A stretch of 4,406 nt of DNA from positions 1 through 4,406 of IMG/VR virus record IMGVR_UViG_2703718784_000009; one strand, 5' to 3'. The notes below the pieces were generated by a model, which was not told where the DNA came from, did not search any database, and saw only the letters and a program-made list of their open reading frames with translations. Below are positions 1-4,406 of this stretch, piece by piece. How positions within the stretch are numbered: position 1 is the stretch's first letter; each line of letters begins with the position of its first letter. This DNA is from a virus (lineage: Duplodnaviria > Heunggongvirae > Uroviricota > Caudoviricetes). The translations under genes and the position numbers were made by a program.

Positions 1-174
1 TGAGGATGAAATAATCCCGTTCAGCGGCGTCTGCCAGTCTGGGGCCGGTTGCATTATCCACGCCGGAGGTGGTGGGGGCTTCACGCACGGAGCCTGGACA
101 GGTGGCGTTGATCCGCAGGCGCTTACGACCAGCGGCAACGTCAGCGCGAAGAGTTTCATTTTCAGCTCTCGCAT
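1..174 (-). CDS. Rz1: Rz1 o-spanin (outer-membrane lipoprotein) embedded in the +1 frame of Rz; 3' end truncated by the window edge
   Basis: ATG at 174..172 (second in-frame ATG at 159..157), entirely inside Rz in a different frame. Translation [58 protein letters not shown]: signal peptide with lipobox (VSAC) followed by a proline-rich mature region, the hallmark of Rz1. Confidence 0.85.
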
Positions 175-394
175 CAGCTAATTCCCTCGAGTATTTTGCA
201 TCGAGCGCAGCAACATCGCGCTGGCGCACCTGCATATCAGTAATGGTTGCGTTTGCCAGCTCCAGCTCTCTGGCTTTTTTATCTCGCTGCGCTTTGTAGG
301 TGATGGCGTTATCGCGGTAATGATTCAGCCCCAGACTAAGCGCACCACAGGCCACCAGCAGGACAATAATCACCACACACAGAACACGGTTCAT
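1..394 (-). CDS. Rz: Rz i-spanin (inner-membrane spanin subunit); 3' end truncated by the window edge
   Basis: ATG at 394..392 preceded by a GAGGGGG Shine-Dalgarno; frame open to position 1 (131 codons in window). Translation [99 protein letters not shown]...[13 protein letters not shown]: N-terminal TM helix then coiled-coil region, near-colinear with phage lambda Rz as I recall it. Not listed in the ORF track because no stop lies in the window. Confidence 0.9.
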
Positions 395-401
395 ATCCCC
401 C

Positions 402-533
402 TCACCCCAGCATCCCCGACGAAGACAACATCATCCAGCCCAGGGAAAGAAAAATAGCAACCAGCATTAGTGAAAATGAAATGCCGACGATTACACAGAG
501 GATCTTCGCCAGCGTTATGAGCTTGTCTGACAT
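402..533 (-). CDS. hypothetical 43-aa hydrophobic peptide ([43 protein letters not shown])
   Basis: ATG at 533..531 with AGAGGA Shine-Dalgarno 6 nt upstream; stop TGA at 404..402, 7 nt before the Rz start. Almost entirely hydrophobic (one TM helix). Below the 60-aa cutoff of the ORF track. Same frame as the upstream ORF 546..728, separated only by a TGA. Confidence 0.3.
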
Positions 534-545
534 GCTTAATCCTCT

Positions 546-728
546 TCACGATTTCAACGCAATGACCAGTTTTGCCAGTCCATACAGCATCGGAGACACA
601 GCAATACCGACCGCCACCCACTTAATAGCAAAAGCCAGCGCTCTGCTGATGTCATCAGTTACAGGCGCTTTCAGTTCAAGGCCGTTTTTCATAGTCAACC
701 TCAACAGAATTCGTTTATACTTTTCCAT
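546..728 (-). CDS. hypothetical 60-aa small membrane protein, C-terminal TM helix (MEKYKRILLRLTMKNGLELKAPVTDDISRALAFAIKWVAVGIAVSPMLYGLAKLVIALKS)
   Basis: First ATG at 728..726 preceded by AAGGGAGAAC (purine-rich SD). The ORF-track start at 761 is a GTG lying inside the terminator hairpin, so the ATG is preferred. Stop TGA 548..546. Basic N-terminus, hydrophobic C-terminal segment. Confidence 0.45.
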   Translation of the reverse strand: MEKYKRILLRLTMKNGLELKAPVTDDISRALAFAIKWVAVGIAVSPMLYGLAKLVIALKS

Positions 729-761
729 GTTCTCCCTTGCCTTATCCAAGGTCAGAAACAC

Positions 762-800
762 AAAACCCCGCTTGCAGCCAACAAACGGGGTTTTTACTTT
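762..800. terminator. intrinsic (Rho-independent) terminator hairpin, bidirectional, stronger in the plus direction
   Basis: AAAACCCCG (762..770) pairs with CGGGGTTTT (786..794); loop has further internal pairing; followed on the plus strand by TTTTTACTTTTATT. On the minus strand the same hairpin is followed by UUUUGUGUUU. Lies between the endolysin stop (885) and the small ORF start (728). Confidence 0.6.
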
Positions 801-884
801 TATTCACTTAGTTTTTGTCAGTTCGCAGGATTTCGTGTTATCCGTCCGTGTGAGCAAACCGCATTTTTCAGCAAAATATTCTGC

Positions 885-1418
885 TTATCTGTCAATTCCC
901 CAGCACGCCAGCGCACTCTCCTGGTCGCGACGGGATACCTGACCGTAACAGTTGTTTGAGCGAATACGGCAGTCTCTGCCACCGTCCTTAATCCACCAGC
1001 GAATCGCTTCGCATGCTCCCCTGCGATCACCTGCATTAATTCGTCTGTAAAACGTCGACGGGAAACACTTACCGGGACCAATGTTGTACGGACAGAATGA
1101 CGCGATCCCCGCTTTCTGGGGTTCGGTCAGCGGCACTCTGATGTTTTTCTCCACCCACGCCAGCGCCTTATCACGCTCAATGGCGTTAACCTGGTCGCAT
1201 TTTTCCTTCGACAACTTCATGCCCGGAACGACAGGTTTGCCATCCACCATGATGGCACCACGGCAGATGGTCCAGATACCTGCACCATCACGGTATGCCG
1301 TGGTGTGGTTACCTTCCTTTTCATCCAGAAACTGGTCGAGAATTTCAGGCGCAGAAGCCCCTGCGGCAATCAGCGCCAGAACGGCAGCCGACAGGCCGTA
1401 TTTGATTTTTGCGTTCAT
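885..1418 (-). CDS. R: endolysin, T4-lysozyme-like muramidase (GH24) with N-terminal signal-arrest-release (SAR) domain
   Basis: 177-aa ORF, ATG 1418..1416, stop TAA 887..885. N-terminal weakly hydrophobic Gly/Ala-rich segment (YGLSAAVLALIAAGASA) typical of SAR endolysins. Catalytic E-x8-D-x5-T spacing present (E..GNHTTAYR D GAGIW T), as in T4 lysozyme and phage 21 R. No strong SD upstream of the ATG. Confidence 0.92.
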   Translation of the reverse strand: MNAKIKYGLSAAVLALIAAGASAPEILDQFLDEKEGNHTTAYRDGAGIWTICRGAIMVDGKPVVPGMKLSKEKCDQVNAIERDKALAWVEKNIRVPLTEPQKAGIASFCPYNIGPGKCFPSTFYRRINAGDRRGACEAIRWWIKDGGRDCRIRSNNCYGQVSRRDQESALACWGIDR

Positions 1419-1529
1419 GGATATTTATCAGGATTTATCGGTTCCGAATCCCTGGATATGTTAAGCCTTCACCCCGCCAGTGGTGGGCACTGGCCAGGGT
1501 ATGTCAATCTGATAAACACAGAGGTGACT

Positions 1530-1790
1530 ATGGATTATCCAAATCTACCAAAACAAACTTTTGCTGATTTAATCGCACTCAGGCAAGCAGTCGTAGCTCT
1601 AATCAACGTGTTGCCGGATGAGGAAAAGGAATTAGTTAAAGCAATTCTTAACAGAACTGCCGCCGATTTTTCATCATTCCCACTGACAGATGACCTTGCG
1701 GACCTTCCTGAATTAATTGCAGCGTCCGCCATTAAGCTTACTGAAGAGATTTACTCTCCTCAAAAGCCTTCACAAAATTCCTGCGAGTAA
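1530..1790 (+). CDS. hypothetical 86-aa acidic protein, convergent to the late operon (MDYPNLPKQTFADLIALRQAVVALINVLPDEEKELVKAILNRTAADFSSFPLTDDLADLPELIAASAIKLTEEIYSPQKPSQNSCE)
   Basis: ATG 1530..1532 preceded by GAGGTG (1521..1526); stop TAA 1788..1790; a strong intrinsic terminator follows about 20 nt downstream (1809..1845). Helix-like amphipathic composition; AT-rich codons (about 42% GC by hand count). The longer track ORF 1305..1790 starts at a GTG with no SD. The 3' end overlaps gene 1738..2373 by 53 nt on the opposite strand. Confidence 0.55.
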   Translation: MDYPNLPKQTFADLIALRQAVVALINVLPDEEKELVKAILNRTAADFSSFPLTDDLADLPELIAASAIKLTEEIYSPQKPSQNSCE

Positions 1791-2373
1791 CTTCAATGCA
1801 ATAATCGTAAAACGCCGCGAACTGCTCATCGCGGCGTTTTTCTTCAGGCCGCTGAAGATGCTCTTTCAACCGTGAAGCGCAGCTTAGATGCGCCGCGCGA
1901 TCAAGAATAGTTTCTTTCATTTCATCTGCTGCAAGCACCTCATTTTTTGTTGGGGTGCTTTTTTTCAATTCAGCGATATAGCACTCCAGTTTTTCAATGC
2001 GTGATTCAATATCATCGTTTTCTGACCGCAATGCCGTCGGTGGCGTCTTCAGAGAACCAGTAATTATTCCCGGTAGTTTTCCTCTGTAGGTTATCAACAC
2101 ATCCTGCGCCTCTAAAATTATGGGGCGCTTTTCCGGCGACTGCTCATCCCCTTCACATAAAGCGGCAGCAATATCCATGAAAAACTGCTTCGCCTGTTTT
2201 TTCGCCTCAGCTTCGTAAAATTCCAGCGTGGCACCTTCAGTACGGTCAAGACTAATCGCCACATTTGGCAACAACAGTGACGGATACCCACCAATTTCCA
2301 GTGCCACAGTAACAGTAATCTTATCCGGGTAATTATTTATCCCTTTAACAACCAGTTCGTATTTTTTCTTCAT
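1738..2373 (-). CDS. hypothetical 211-aa soluble protein inserted between holin and endolysin; function unknown
   Basis: ATG 2373..2371 lies 4 nt after the holin stop (TAA 2380..2378) with GGGGAGAG SD inside the holin 3' end, i.e. tight translational coupling. Stop TAA 1740..1738. No TM segment; the C-terminal half looks helical/coiled-coil (DDIESRIEKLECYIAELKK...). I do not recognise the family. Confidence 0.8.
   Translation of the reverse strand: MKKKYELVVKGINNYPDKITVTVALEIGGYPSLLLPNVAISLDRTEGATLEFYEAEAKKQAKQFFMDIAAALCEGDEQSPEKRPIILEAQDVLITYRGKLPGIITGSLKTPPTALRSENDDIESRIEKLECYIAELKKSTPTKNEVLAADEMKETILDRAAHLSCASRLKEHLQRPEEKRRDEQFAAFYDYCIEVTRRNFVKAFEESKSLQ
1809..1845 (+). terminator. intrinsic terminator for the plus-strand ORF 1530..1790, embedded in the coding sequence of the minus-strand gene 1738..2373
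   Basis: AAAACGCCGCGA (1809..1820) pairs perfectly with TCGCGGCGTTTT (1829..1840), 8-nt loop, then TTTTTCTTC. Weaker in the minus direction (followed there by UUUUACG). Confidence 0.6.
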
Positions 2374-2377
2374 CGCT

Positions 2378-2593
2378 TTACTCTCCCCGCGCCGCCTTAC
2401 GCCGGTCCTCTCTGATTTTGAAATACAGGTTAGTCAGATATGTCAGCAGCCCAAACAGCAGACTCCCCAGCACGCCTATTGCCGCCCACTGAGACGGGGA
2501 AACCCTGTCCAGCAACTGCAGGAACCAGTAGCCCGTTCCCACCGCTGACGTGGTGTATGACACACCTGTTGTGATTTTTTCCATCTGGTACAT
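2378..2593 (-). CDS. S: class II holin (pinholin), phage 21 S-like, with dual-start motif
   Basis: 71-aa [74 protein letters not shown]: two TM segments plus charged C-terminal tail; closely resembles S21 / E. coli EssD as I recall them. Two in-frame ATGs (2593 and 2584). GGGAG SD upstream. Confidence 0.9.
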
Positions 2594-2668
2594 ACCCCGT
2601 CTCCCGTACTCGGAAGCTCACAACAACAAAAGGGCCACCAGCTCTTTACTGATGACCCTGACTCACCG

Positions 2669-2959
2669 TTACAGCATTGTGCCCGATTCTGGCTGTGTGT
2701 CTGTCATATCCGTCACCGGTGGCTCCGGCTGAATATCACCATTTTCCGTGGTGACATCTTCCGCCTGTGGTTCCGGAAGCAGTTCCGGGGATGGTTCCGG
2801 CTGTGCACCAAGCAATTCATCCAGAATGGCATCCACTTCTGCATCAAGACGCGCCTCAAGGTTCTGCCGAAGTTGCTGTTTCAGTGCGCTCCGGACTTCT
2901 TCAGAGCGCAGGACTTCCTTCACTGCCTCAGCAGTGACCAGCGATTTTATTTCTGACAT
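2669..2959 (-). CDS. hypothetical 96-aa acidic protein with helical N-terminal half and Pro/Glu-rich C-terminal tail
   Basis: First ATG at 2959..2957 (the track ORF extends to a GTG at 3133 but overlaps the neighbouring ORF). Stop TAA 2671..2669. Protein-like sequence MSEIKSLVTAEAVKEVLRSEEVRSALKQQLRQNLEARLDAEVDAILDELLGAQPEPSPELLPEPQ..., whereas the opposite-strand ORF 2748..2975 is serine-rich low complexity. Weak SD (GAGAAAA). Confidence 0.55.
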   Translation of the reverse strand: MSEIKSLVTAEAVKEVLRSEEVRSALKQQLRQNLEARLDAEVDAILDELLGAQPEPSPELLPEPQAEDVTTENGDIQPEPPVTDMTDTQPESGTML

Positions 2960-2996
2960 AGGATTTTCTCGTTGAAAGGTGTTGTCAAGAAAGTGA

Positions 2997-3179
2997 CTAC
3001 GGAATGAGCGGATCTTCGGGTTTGCTTCCGGCTGACTGACTGGCGCTGATTTTCTCTGCGGCCCTTTTATCAATCTGCCTGCGCCAGAAATCGCGCACTG
3101 CCCTGTACCCACCCGAAAGAAGATACATAACACAGACTGCCGTACAGAAGTACAGCATCACCTGATGAACAAATGTCAT
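2997..3179 (-). CDS. hypothetical 60-aa small membrane protein, N-terminal TM helix and basic tail (MTFVHQVMLYFCTAVCVMYLLSGGYRAVRDFWRRQIDKRAAEKISASQSAGSKPEDPLIP)
   Basis: ATG 3179..3177, stop TAG 2999..2997. No SD of its own, but its ATG overlaps the TGA stop of an upstream 14-codon leader ORF (ATGA overlap), which follows another 14-codon ORF that has a perfect GGAGGT SD (see findings). N-terminal hydrophobic helix with positive residues after it. Confidence 0.45.
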   Translation of the reverse strand: MTFVHQVMLYFCTAVCVMYLLSGGYRAVRDFWRRQIDKRAAEKISASQSAGSKPEDPLIP

Positions 3180-3276
3180 AGTTTCTTACCGTTATGGTTG
3201 ACAATGAGAACTGTTTTCATTTAAAAAACCGATATACGAAAGCATCTTTTCTTTACATTCTCCATTGGGATTACCT

Positions 3277-3313
3277 CCGCCAGCTTCCGTTCCTGCCGCT
3301 GGCGGCTTTTTTT
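3277..3313 (+). terminator. intrinsic terminator oriented for plus-strand transcription (antisense to the late operon)
   Basis: CCGCCAGC (3277..3284) pairs with GCTGGCGG (3298..3305), 13-nt loop, followed by C plus TTTTTTT (3307..3313). No U-tract in the minus direction, so it is unidirectional. Confidence 0.55.
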
Positions 3314-3318
3314 GCCGG

Positions 3319-4406
3319 TTATGATGATGCCCGGCTTTCGTTAACTTTGACTGTGACCGTATCAAGCAGTACCGGATACGTCGCTTTTGCCCCCGTGATA
3401 TCTGTCAGCGTCAGCGTATCTGCTGTAAAGTCATCATTTGTCCACATCACAAGGTCAAACGCCGTCTGCTCTGTACCATCAATCACCGGAACGACTCTTT
3501 CGCTGTTATTTCCCGCAAAGCGGAAAACAACCGTATGCCAGTTATGGTCAAACGCACCAAATGTACCCAGTTGTGCATTCGACGTGCCCTTGTGGTGCAT
3601 AAGATTCAGATTTGATGCATCCGTCTGAAGGAAGAATGATGCCAGCATACTGTTTGCTGCCGCGCCTGACGCCCACTGCGACACCGGCCAGTAGAGACCA
3701 AAGACAAACTGTCCGTTCACCAGTTCGCTTCCATCCGGAATTTTGAACCGTACGGCAATTTCACCCCCCTTGCTGAGAAGATTTTTTGCCTCCTCCACTG
3801 CAACAGTACGGAACATTTTCCAGGACATCAGTTTACCGGGCTGTTTTTCCAGTCGCAGCGCTTTCCGTCCACCGTCATCAGTCACAGTGCCTTTGCCGCC
3901 GGAAGCACCCCACTGCTGCTCTGTCAATGCACCATTTCCACTGTTCGCATCATATTCAGCCACCGTCCTGGTACTGCTCACGGCCTCATCATGATCAGTA
4001 CCAGCAACACCGCCATCCTGCGGTTTCTCAACATCCGGTGTCCCCGGACTGACAGGAGTTGTACCACCCGACTGCGGTGCGCTCTGCCCGGTAAGGAACG
4101 ATAATGTCCGCCCGGCGTACTGCAAAATGGCACCTGCCAGGCGGTCTGAAACAAGGCCTCTTCGCGCCCATGAACTGAAGTGCGTTTTACGATCGGCTGA
4201 CGTCCAGTTACTGGCAGTGCGTGACGCAGCGCCATAGTATCCCGCCGGGATAATGTCCCGATCTTCTGACGGCTCGTTTGTCGGCACATTCACACCATGC
4301 TCATCCGTCATCAACGGCACAAAGTGAATATTCTGCGCAGCTTTGCCTTTATACCCACCGTAAACCGCCTCATACGGCGCTGCATACCTTTCCTTCCAGT
4401 AGTACG
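3319..4406 (-). CDS. large accessory ORF of unknown function, C-terminal 362 codons only (5' end beyond the right window edge)
   Basis: Stop TAA 3321..3319; frame stays open to position 4406 (the track start at 4320 is a GTG, and the upstream codons ...YYWKERYAAPYEAVYGGYKGKAAQNIHFVPL are stop-free and protein-like). Contains a Gly/Ser/Thr/Pro-rich linker followed by a beta-rich C-terminal domain (FGLYWPVSQW...WHTVVFRFAGNNSERVVPVIDG...), possibly jelly-roll/lectin-like. It sits upstream of the holin in the operon; the antiterminator Q is not in the window. Confidence 0.85.
   Translation of the reverse strand, partial: YYWKERYAAPYEAVYGGYKGKAAQNIHFVPLMTDEHGVNVPTNEPSEDRDIIPAGYYGAASRTASNWTSADRKTHFSSWARRGLVSDRLAGAILQYAGRTLSFLTGQSAPQSGGTTPVSPGTPDVEKPQDGGVAGTDHDEAVSSTRTVAEYDANSGNGALTEQQWGASGGKGTVTDDGGRKALRLEKQPGKLMSWKMFRTVAVEEAKNLLSKGGEIAVRFKIPDGSELVNGQFVFGLYWPVSQWASGAAANSMLASFFLQTDASNLNLMHHKGTSNAQLGTFGAFDHNWHTVVFRFAGNNSERVVPVIDGTEQTAFDLVMWTNDDFTADTLTLTDITGAKATYPVLLDTVTVKVNESRASS

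Follow-up and report, generated by a model that had tools for sequence, protein, structure and literature searches.

Intrinsic terminators of both orientations at the module junctions of a lambdoid lysis cassette

The 4,406-nucleotide stretch of viral DNA analysed here (positions 1 to 4,406 of IMG/VR record IMGVR_UViG_2703718784_000009, hereafter the window) contains five intrinsic terminators of mixed orientation, each located at a junction between mosaic modules. Judged by sequence, the window is the lysis cassette of a lambdoid, Shiga toxin (Stx)-phage-like Escherichia coli prophage. A preliminary description had named three hairpins in it, which we call hp1 (762..800), hp2 (1809..1845) and hp3 (3277..3313), and had interpreted all of them as plus-strand stop signals of accessory units that were inserted into the late operon and are expressed in the lysogen. 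On re-reading of the window the coordinates and sequences of the three hairpins proved correct. The list was incomplete, as it had missed a plus-strand terminator at 1935..1958 and a minus-strand one at 2658..2632. With moderate confidence, we favour an explanation in which the five sites have different tasks: hp3 would end an antisense small RNA (sRNA), hp2 and 1935..1958 would stop transcription of p86, a convergent open reading frame (ORF) of 86 amino acids, and hp1 and 2658..2632 would act in the late sense.

Terminator signals and their orientation

Because the built-in terminator scan overlooks long stems that absorb the T-tract, we wrote a scorer of the d'Aubenton-Carafa type for this analysis, in which d combines the hairpin energy per length with a weighted U-tract. 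Chance levels were obtained from 150 dinucleotide-preserving shuffles of the window. The scorer returned seven strand-specific matches at five sites with d of at least 0, versus a mean of 0.28 in the shuffles, and four of these matches reached d of at least 15 (shuffle mean 0.01). With the built-in scan, 9 sites were observed versus 4.5 ± 2.3 expected. The terminator signals in the window are real and lie far above chance. All three hairpins and the two further sites consist of a GC-rich stem followed by a U-tract, and the strand varies by site (Table 1). As previously described, each of the three hairpins carries a T-tract on the plus strand, but only hp3 is cleanly confined to that strand. 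Both hp1 and hp2 are palindromes of A-tract, stem and T-tract, and hp1 could not be upheld as mainly a plus-strand signal, with d=18.9 on the minus strand versus 0.2 on the plus strand.

We then compared the sites with the transcription units of the same strand. On their own strands, p86 is followed by hp2 and the lysozyme gene R by hp1 in its minus-strand form, but no plus-strand unit lies upstream of hp1; hp3 qualifies provided that the sRNA predicted below exists. Scanning the window for consensus promoters gave 3 promoter-like sites versus 3.9 expected, that is, not above chance. A permissive Rfam scan of the whole window gave just two sub-threshold chance matches (a rimP leader over hp1, and ar15), and the Rfam models of AsxR and AgvB had no match in the window.

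These data bear on the reading in which all three hairpins are plus-strand stops, each belonging to an adjacent accessory insertion expressed in the lysogen. The plus-strand T-tracts agree with it, hp2 fits it well, and the modules next to the other two hairpins (the DUF1378/DUF826 genes and two small ORFs) do vary among related prophages. However, the small ORFs and the DUF1378/DUF826 genes lie on the minus strand, so that a plus-strand terminator cannot end their transcripts. In addition, hp1 is strongly biased towards the late sense and segregates with R rather than with the small ORFs, and the two extra terminators, one of them late-sense, do not fit. We therefore regard a uniform plus-strand role as improbable.

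In megablast searches the whole window matched E. coli NCTC9112 over its full length with 97% identity. The phages PhiR5_1 and PhiR12 also matched, and parts of the window were found in hundreds of Stx1- and Stx2-converting phages. Upstream of its cassette, NCTC9112 has a Q-region (RusA, DUF1133, tRNAs, TerB), and downstream the terminase, which bears out the earlier assignment of a Q-dependent late operon to the minus strand.

Table 1. Terminators, predicted RNA features and genes of the window. Genes were assigned from the annotation of the best matches, Pfam scans and ORF calls; late genes are on the minus strand.
Feature	Position	Strand	Score, basis or remarks
hp1	762..800 (scored stem 766..790)	- and +	d=18.9 minus, 0.2 plus
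hp2	1809..1845 (scored stem 1813..1836)	+ and -	d=19.4 plus, 5.2 minus
Terminator downstream of hp2	1935..1958	+	d=21.5 plus, none minus; highest d in the window
Late-sense terminator	2620..2658 (scored as 2658..2632)	-	d=20.2 minus, none plus; between DUF826 stop (2669) and holin start (2593); -17.1 kcal/mol, z -4.15
hp3	3277..3313 (scored inner stem 3295..3306)	+	d=6.6 plus, none minus
Promoter-like region	3198..3227	+	TTGACA 3198..3203; A-rich -10 (TTAAAA/TAAAAA) 3221..3227
Predicted antisense sRNA, sRNA3	3233..3313	+	about 80 nt; length inferred from the -35 position
NanS-p-like sialate O-acetylesterase, 3' part	3319..4406	-	SASA family / DUF6645 (Pfam); NCTC9112 annotation; stop codon 3319..3321
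DUF1378 gene	2997..3179	-	Pfam; late-sense
DUF826 gene	2669..2959	-	Pfam; late-sense
Holin S	2378..2593	-	class II, P21-type; Pfam Phage_holin_2_1; annotation
YdfR-like ORF, 211 aa	1738..2373	-	Pfam DUF1327 over residues 1-112
p86, 86-aa ORF	1530..1790	+	convergent with late genes; PHROG 2572; no Pfam family
Lysozyme R	885..1418	-	Pfam Phage_lysozyme; annotation
60-aa ORF	546..728	-	small, hydrophobic membrane-type; PHROG 1115; NCTC9112 annotation
43-aa ORF	402..533	-	small, hydrophobic membrane-type; PHROG 4906; NCTC9112 annotation
Rz (spanin), 5' part	1..394	-	annotation of matches

The hp3 element and a predicted antisense RNA

Most likely, hp3 is the terminator of an sRNA of about 80 nt that resembles PasA and PasC of enteropathogenic E. 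coli (EPEC) and is annotated nowhere. On the plus strand the hairpin consists of CCGCCAGC-N13-GCTGGCGG-C-T7, and its T-tract, on the other strand than the late genes, ends 5 nt short of the esterase stop codon. In the hp3 locus, TTGACA sits 115 nt upstream. The 5' end of the putative sRNA, named sRNA3, was placed by the offset found for PasC, where 30 nt separate the end of the -35 from the mapped 5' end. The predicted RNA would have a U-rich, unstructured body with the motif CUCCAU, followed by the terminator and a U7 tail, and would be complementary over its entire length to the late transcript between the esterase and DUF1378 genes. The earlier view of hp3 as the plus-strand stop of a lysogen-type unit would thus stand, but the unit is likely an sRNA and not the minus-strand transmembrane ORF of DUF1378.

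Using DUF1378 as bait we obtained 80 viral contigs, in which the hp3 element was found at 77 loci and in 34 distinct variants. TTGACA was retained in 33 of the 34 variants (TTGACT in locus L066) and CTCCAT was unchanged in all of them, while the stem CCGCCAG/CTGGCGG and the T-run were essentially invariant. Alleles elsewhere reached d values of up to 33.9. An antisense terminator upstream of DUF1378 was present in nearly all of 70 distinct related cassettes. With at least 90% identity, the element occurred in 305 of 5,426 complete E. coli genomes (about 6%), and it was found in 233 phage records, mostly of Stx-converting phages; the copy in prophage Sp5 of strain Sakai is among the carriers. 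The element is unnamed and unannotated in all records and is possibly new, as the sole such item of this analysis. The DUF1378/DUF826 genes form a variable module that was always linked to hp3 in the loci sampled and is missing from PP2/PP5 of E2348/69 and from Sp4/Sp9 of Sakai. The only literature found on DUF1378/DUF826 was a descriptive note on Stx2a phages, which does not mention RNA elements.

Immediately 3' of the hp3 T-run the flank switches among four unrelated esterase 3' ends, and the U-tract therefore represents a module boundary. Within the stem, the window has C-G at pair 8, whereas L077 and L073 have T.G, and L074, L075 and L078 have T-A. This series indicates a compensatory path, in which the T.G intermediate would pair only in the plus-strand RNA. 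Boundaries of this kind could also mean that the hairpins are short, conserved palindromes at mosaic junctions that serve the recombination of lambdoid modules, without significant terminator function. Breakpoints do fall right after T7 of hp3, after T5 of hp2 and just beside hp1, and a 48-bp segment of hp2 is common to two otherwise different modules. Nevertheless, all of the hairpins have a canonical GC-rich stem with an immediate U-tract, about 25-fold or more over the shuffles, the 3' ends mapped for Northern-verified sRNAs are formed by homologous or analogous hairpins in the slot of hp3, and the wobble-mediated compensatory change on the plus strand of hp3 indicates selection on RNA pairing. 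We consider a pure boundary role unlikely. Terminators at boundaries would be expected if transcription units are the units of exchange, and in that sense the two views are not exclusive.

Alternatively, hp3 might be an element of the late mRNA, either as a 3' stabiliser of the esterase message or as a hairpin that occludes the GGAGG, a strong Shine-Dalgarno sequence, of a short leader ORF that couples translation to DUF1378. On the minus strand the 3' arm GCUGGCGG overlaps GGAGG, located 7 nt before the ATG of a 14-codon ORF (3264..3220), and the invariance of CTCCAT (ATGGAG on that strand) would suit such a role. However, this mini-ORF ranges from 4 codons in BP-4795 through 14 in the window to 24 in other alleles, which also differ by indels that change the frame, and the invariant T7 would serve no purpose in the minus-strand RNA, in which it corresponds to an A7 upstream of the hairpin. 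Furthermore, T.G at pair 8 becomes an A.C mismatch there, and the conserved TTGACA at a PasC-like distance would be left unexplained. There is, in our view, a slim chance that hp3 acts in this way. The 14-codon ORF was rejected as a coding gene, since neither its length nor its frame is conserved.

The reading of hp3 as an sRNA terminator gains from a comparison with mapped sRNAs. PasA (NC_011601.1, 743499 to 743415, minus strand, minor 3' end at 743264) and PasC (1290909 to 1290832, minus strand, same record; both Pearl Mizrahi et al. 2021, table S6, PMC8550237) lie in the esterase-holin slot of EPEC with the directionality '> < >', were verified by Northern blotting and are destabilised without Hfq (PMC8550237). 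The esterase genes of EPEC E2348/69 end at 743265 and 1290830; therefore, the PasC terminator and the minor PasA end abut the esterase stop, as hp3 does. Counterparts in enterohaemorrhagic E. coli (EHEC) are EcOnc35, EcOnc51 and EcOnc52 (PMC4104026; PMC8550237). Two Hfq peaks from cross-linking and analysis of cDNA (CRAC), EcOnc52 and EcOnc35 (Tree et al. 2014, PMC4104026), mapped to PasC-like and PasA-like sequences, respectively, in Sakai Sp4. A conserved 'esterase-PasA-holin-lysozyme' arrangement has been described (Zhu, Shabalina & Storz 2026, bioRxiv 10.64898/2026.05.13.724894). Sakai coordinates in NC_002695.1 are shifted by +142 relative to NC_002695.2 at Sp5 and by 0 at Sp4, which matters for the mapping of EcOnc, transcription start site and Term-seq positions.

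Like PasA/PasC and EcOnc35/52, the hp3 element occupies the slot between the esterase stop and the holin module in antisense orientation, and the predicted length of about 80 nt compares with 79 nt for PasC and 85 nt for PasA. Shared between these loci and the window are TTGACA at an equal distance from the terminator, an A-rich -10 and a variable body. PasA/PasC-type loci and the window also have in common the terminator core GCCAGC...GCTGGC, followed by T7. We built a covariance model (R1) only from five PasA/PasC-type loci and searched 38 kb with it. The top match within the window was exactly 3198..3313, covering the full model with 14.8 bits. The BP-4795 allele scored 21.5 bits (E 0.008), while hp2 reached only 6.8 bits.

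Several observations weigh against sRNA3 and its kinship with PasA/PasC. The R1 match in the window is weak (E=0.17), and an nhmmer profile of the five PasA/PasC-type loci gave zero matches there. By energy alone hp3 is not exceptional (folding z = -0.9), and its loop comprises 13 nt. The consensus promoter scan called nothing at 3198..3227, where the -10 match is poor. RNAalifold, applied to an automatic alignment of 13 diverse sRNA3 alleles, returned the invariant 7-bp stem only and no covariation; the stems are near-invariant, and the covariation support for hp3 is a single pair from direct sequence reading. Rfam contained no family for the PasA/PasC type and no match to the hp3 element, and blastn did not connect PasA/PasC with it. 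The Sakai Sp5 copy of sRNA3 is not among the 63 Hfq-bound orphan sites in Table S2 of Tree et al. 2014, which is a weak negative, and it had no match in the supplements searched on RNase E cross-linking, ligation and sequencing of hybrids (CLASH; Waters 2017). Moreover, the body (seed) sequence of PasA/PasC is unrelated to that of sRNA3, and the hp3 element is always tied to DUF1378/DUF826, whereas the PasA/PasC loci lack both.

In sum, membership of sRNA3 in the PasA/PasC family is plausible yet weak by sequence, while position, orientation and architecture fit. As a tentative proposal that we would not yet call probable, a DUF1378-linked branch of a PasA/PasC superfamily might supply the majority of Stx1- and Stx2-converting phages, Sakai Sp5 and BP-4795 among them, with an antisense sRNA of about 80 nt. 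Such an RNA would be made in the lysogen, would use CUCCAU (anti-Shine-Dalgarno/AUG) as its seed and might act through Hfq on host mRNAs or, OOP-like, on the junction between the esterase and the lysis cassette.

Terminators around the lysozyme and holin genes

On the plus strand hp1 reads A4-CCCCG...CGGGG-T5ACTTT, on the minus strand CCCCGUUUGU-loop-GCAAGCGGGG and then UUUUGUGUUUC. Its fold is more stable on the minus strand (-21.6 kcal/mol, z -4.7) than on the plus strand (-14.2 kcal/mol, z -3.0), and two pairs that are G.U in minus-strand RNA are A.C mismatches in plus-strand RNA. The hairpin lies 95 nt downstream of the R stop. We read hp1 as primarily a late-sense terminator that would close the R module, with weak plus-strand activity, and hence as effectively bidirectional. 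What speaks against a late-sense assignment is that the plus-strand U-tract is good, and some plus-strand termination is possible.

Comparison with related cassettes separated hp1 from the small ORFs. The segment 730..885 with hp1 was kept downstream of R in cassettes without the 60- and 43-aa ORFs (Sakai Sp4, SCU-125), and a homology breakpoint lies beside hp1, at about 730-757. The hp1 segment was missing only where R and Rz abut (Qin, E2348/69). In 70 distinct related cassettes, the hairpin after R had sense d values of 16-28 and was weak at most in antisense. In ant-type cassettes (PhiR5_1, BP-4795) an unrelated hairpin, GGCACC-N5-GGTGCC, stands in place of hp1, and here the late-sense U-rich tail TTTGTNNTTTCTG was kept but the plus-strand T-run was not. 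Between hp1 and the start codon of the 60-aa ORF there are 37 nt, and therefore no room for a promoter after hp1. The 60- and 43-aa ORFs, which had been assigned hp1 as their stop signal, are themselves minus-strand ORFs that late transcription reaches after the hairpin; by position they are late genes that would be reached by read-through rather than units with a plus-strand stop. The R-Rz slot of these ORFs is taken by the antirepressor gene ant in BP-4795 and Sp5. The region 395..890 with the small ORFs had matches of at least 80% coverage in 990 complete E. coli genomes.

A different role for hp1 would be to end a plus-strand antisense RNA that starts from 692..721 inside the 60-aa ORF and covers its ribosome-binding site, in the manner of a type I toxin-antitoxin system. 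A promoter-like TAGTCA-18-TATACT ends at 721, an RNA of about 70 nt would reach hp1 and its plus-strand U-tract, and the ORFs are small and hydrophobic. Yet promoter-like matches in the window are not above chance, an identical hp1 is found in cassettes without these ORFs, where the sequence left of about 757 is replaced, and hp1 is weak on the plus strand. The probability of such a system appears very low to us, and as a candidate, the sRNA running from 692..721 to hp1 was rejected for its non-conserved context and chance-level promoter-like matches.

The second late-sense terminator precedes the holin gene S. A sense terminator just upstream of S was found in most related cassettes, with d up to 55.7 (E2348/69, Sakai Sp4).

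On the plus strand, hp2 (A4-CGCCGCGA-N8-TCGCGGCG-T5) folds with -25.7 kcal/mol (z -5.1) and begins 19 nt after the p86 stop. Its form, A4...T5, is bidirectional; it separates two convergent ORFs, p86 and ydfR', and has a positive score in either direction. For this hairpin, the preliminary description was borne out: ORF and hairpin are present or absent among otherwise homologous cassettes. In K-12 Qin the order is essQ-ydfR-rrrQ, ydfR overlaps rrrQ, and neither p86 nor hp2 is there, so that the hairpin is indeed missing from a relative without the insertion. Both were found in the window, NCTC9112, PhiR5_1, the Qin prophage of strain A3, L011 and L088, and were missing from most cassettes. 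The conserved p86 module begins at the R start codon, and in L008 and L011 it stops exactly with the T5 of hp2. The module has a GC content of 0.44 (0.42 for the coding sequence), versus 0.545 for R and 0.546 for S.

The protein and promoter of p86 are less convincing. Homologues occurred only in E. coli and were all at least 81% identical. Two points count against a functional p86 unit. Substitutions among the alleles were mostly non-synonymous, as counted by hand from an alignment with no statistical test, and the consensus scan had no promoter match within 1419..1530, where only a weak TTATCG-16-TATGTT is seen by eye. Hence p86 may not be a constrained protein. A perfect palindrome, GCCAGTG-N5-CACTGGC, lies upstream of p86 at 1476..1494 on the plus strand, and its left arm, CCGCCAG, is the same as in hp3. 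In L049 the equivalent hairpin is followed by a T-tract and forms an antisense terminator with d 8.5.

Alignment of the 211-aa ORF with YdfR forms of 296-385 aa placed hp2 in the conserved codons EEKRRDEQFAAF of the long-form YdfR gene. Relative to the intact 329-aa allele of L014, two synonymous changes (TTT GCT to TTC GCG) perfect the hp2 stem. Since it falls into resident YdfR codons, hp2 was recruited from, or already in, the resident sequence and not imported. The YdfR/DUF1327 gene has a modular build, and its products range from 103 to 385 aa; long forms consist of an N-domain, a variable coiled coil and a conserved C-domain of about 110 aa ending in GLTYLKVRI (L014, L049, L050, L066). 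By this alignment the 211-aa ORF is a long YdfR form whose C-terminal domain has been replaced by p86, leaving the DUF1327 N-domain and a coiled-coil remnant. A homologue of this ORF is annotated as a pseudogene missing its C-terminus by the Prokaryotic Genome Annotation Pipeline (PGAP).

Inside the YdfR-like ORF, about 90 nt downstream of hp2, lies the second plus-strand terminator (1933..1965; GCACCTCA-N8-TTGGGGTGC, with the stem at 1935..1958 and T7 at 1959..1965; z -4.15). It also occurs at loci without p86, directly behind a different antisense ORF (L082, L012). Antisense terminators in the S-R gap were found only where long YdfR forms or antisense ORFs are present. The YdfR-R junction (1419..2035; loci L007, L029, L032, L035, L049, L066, L073, L074, L082 and L012) is a hot spot with at least four unrelated families of antisense ORFs across prophages. 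Its occupants are p86, a 104-115-aa 'EPYG' family (including ECs_1097 of Sakai Sp4), a 70-91-aa family, a 90-aa ORF and a 210-aa ORF. The loose motif LP-E--E-VKAI is common to p86 and the 104-aa family.

Proposed working of the cassette and known systems

What the sequences show are the positions, energetics, strand-specific strength, excess over chance, linkage, presence or absence and conservation of the signals; actual termination at these sites, expression of sRNA3 and p86, and read-through by Q are inferred. The plus-strand terminators would define short RNAs and, for the sRNA, would supply the U-tail that binds Hfq. By analogy with PasA/PasC, AsxR/AgvB and HnrS, the plus-strand units would be transcribed in the lysogen. 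Among them, sRNA3 would be a tiny, independently transcribed antisense gene, whose RNA might regulate in trans with the help of Hfq, might target in cis the esterase-DUF1378 junction of the late mRNA, to which it is complementary, or might do both. At the same time, hp3 would keep antisense transcription out of the esterase gene, and hp2, with 1935..1958 as back-up stop, would halt p86 transcription before it enters the holin gene in antisense. In this way, antisense terminators may insulate the lysis genes from convergent accessory units.

In the lysogen, unmodified RNA polymerase that arrives from accessory promoters further upstream would be halted at 2658..2632 and hp1, and the cell would thereby be spared the expression of holin and endolysin. 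The lysis genes are thus probably kept silent in the lysogen by the sense terminators that precede the holin gene and follow R. Q-modified RNA polymerase, as established for Q of lambda, 82 and 21, ignores terminators. After induction, the modified polymerase would therefore be expected to pass 2658..2632 and hp1. Purely antisense terminators are no obstacle to late transcription, and they are thus not in conflict with a single late transcript.

Should the hp3 unit be expressed as an sRNA, Stx2a and Stx1a phages, clinically the foremost, would gain one more lysogen-expressed regulator. It would sit between the toxin/esterase block and the lysis genes and would join AsxR, AgvB, StxS, HnrS and PasA-D. 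The comparative map shows a late operon segmented by terminators of both orientations at nearly every module junction. The concept is not new, and the main use of our data lies in annotation and in the reading of existing Term-seq results, such as the Sakai Term-seq and dRNA-seq data of Sy et al. 2020 (GEO GSE143631, cited in PMC7547250).

Bidirectional intrinsic terminators between convergent genes are a general feature of E. coli. This type is matched by hp2, while hp1 shares the symmetry of A-tract and T-tract but has two late-sense neighbours. Accessory units that are transcribed independently, with terminators of their own, inside a Q-antiterminated late operon are the established moron concept, to which Tree et al. 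2014 (PMC4104026) added convergent sRNAs. Morons of lambdoid phages include HK97 gene 15 and lambda bor/lom (Juhala et al. 2000, Hendrix; review PMC3594210). Like them, p86 with hp2 is extra DNA missing from close relatives, has a lower GC content and a factor-independent terminator, and lies inside the late operon. Unlike morons, it has no convincing promoter that we could find, its terminator comes from resident YdfR-like coding sequence, and it is an orphan of E. coli only.

Lambda OOP RNA comprises 77 nt, is antisense to the 3' end of cII and has its own promoter and intrinsic terminator. Predicted sRNA3 would resemble it in length (about 80 nt), in having its own promoter and Rho-independent terminator and in its complementarity to a gene junction of a major phage transcript. 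In contrast, OOP is located in the early right operon and targets cII mRNA by way of RNase III, and the sequences are unrelated.

Convergent Hfq-dependent sRNAs in late regions of EHEC lambdoid prophages are known from the anti-sRNAs AsxR/AgvB and from HnrS (EcOnc10-12; PMC4104026; PMC13502914). Our scan recovered the terminators of these sRNAs in Sakai. The HnrS terminator was recovered with d 21.4 at L091 5656..5678 (Sakai Sp9), in antisense just downstream of Rz; this slot would be just left of window position 1, and the window ends short of it. That hp1 or hp3 is the multicopy sRNA HnrS was rejected, as HnrS maps downstream of Rz and outside the window. AsxR lies downstream of stx2B and HnrS downstream of Rz, and they differ from the hp3 unit in position and are unrelated to it in sequence. 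What these genes have in common with it is that they are short antisense genes with their own intrinsic terminators, located at module junctions of Q-dependent late operons. With morons, convergent prophage sRNAs and sense terminators subject to Q read-through all represented, the hairpin pattern of the window is ordinary for these phages.

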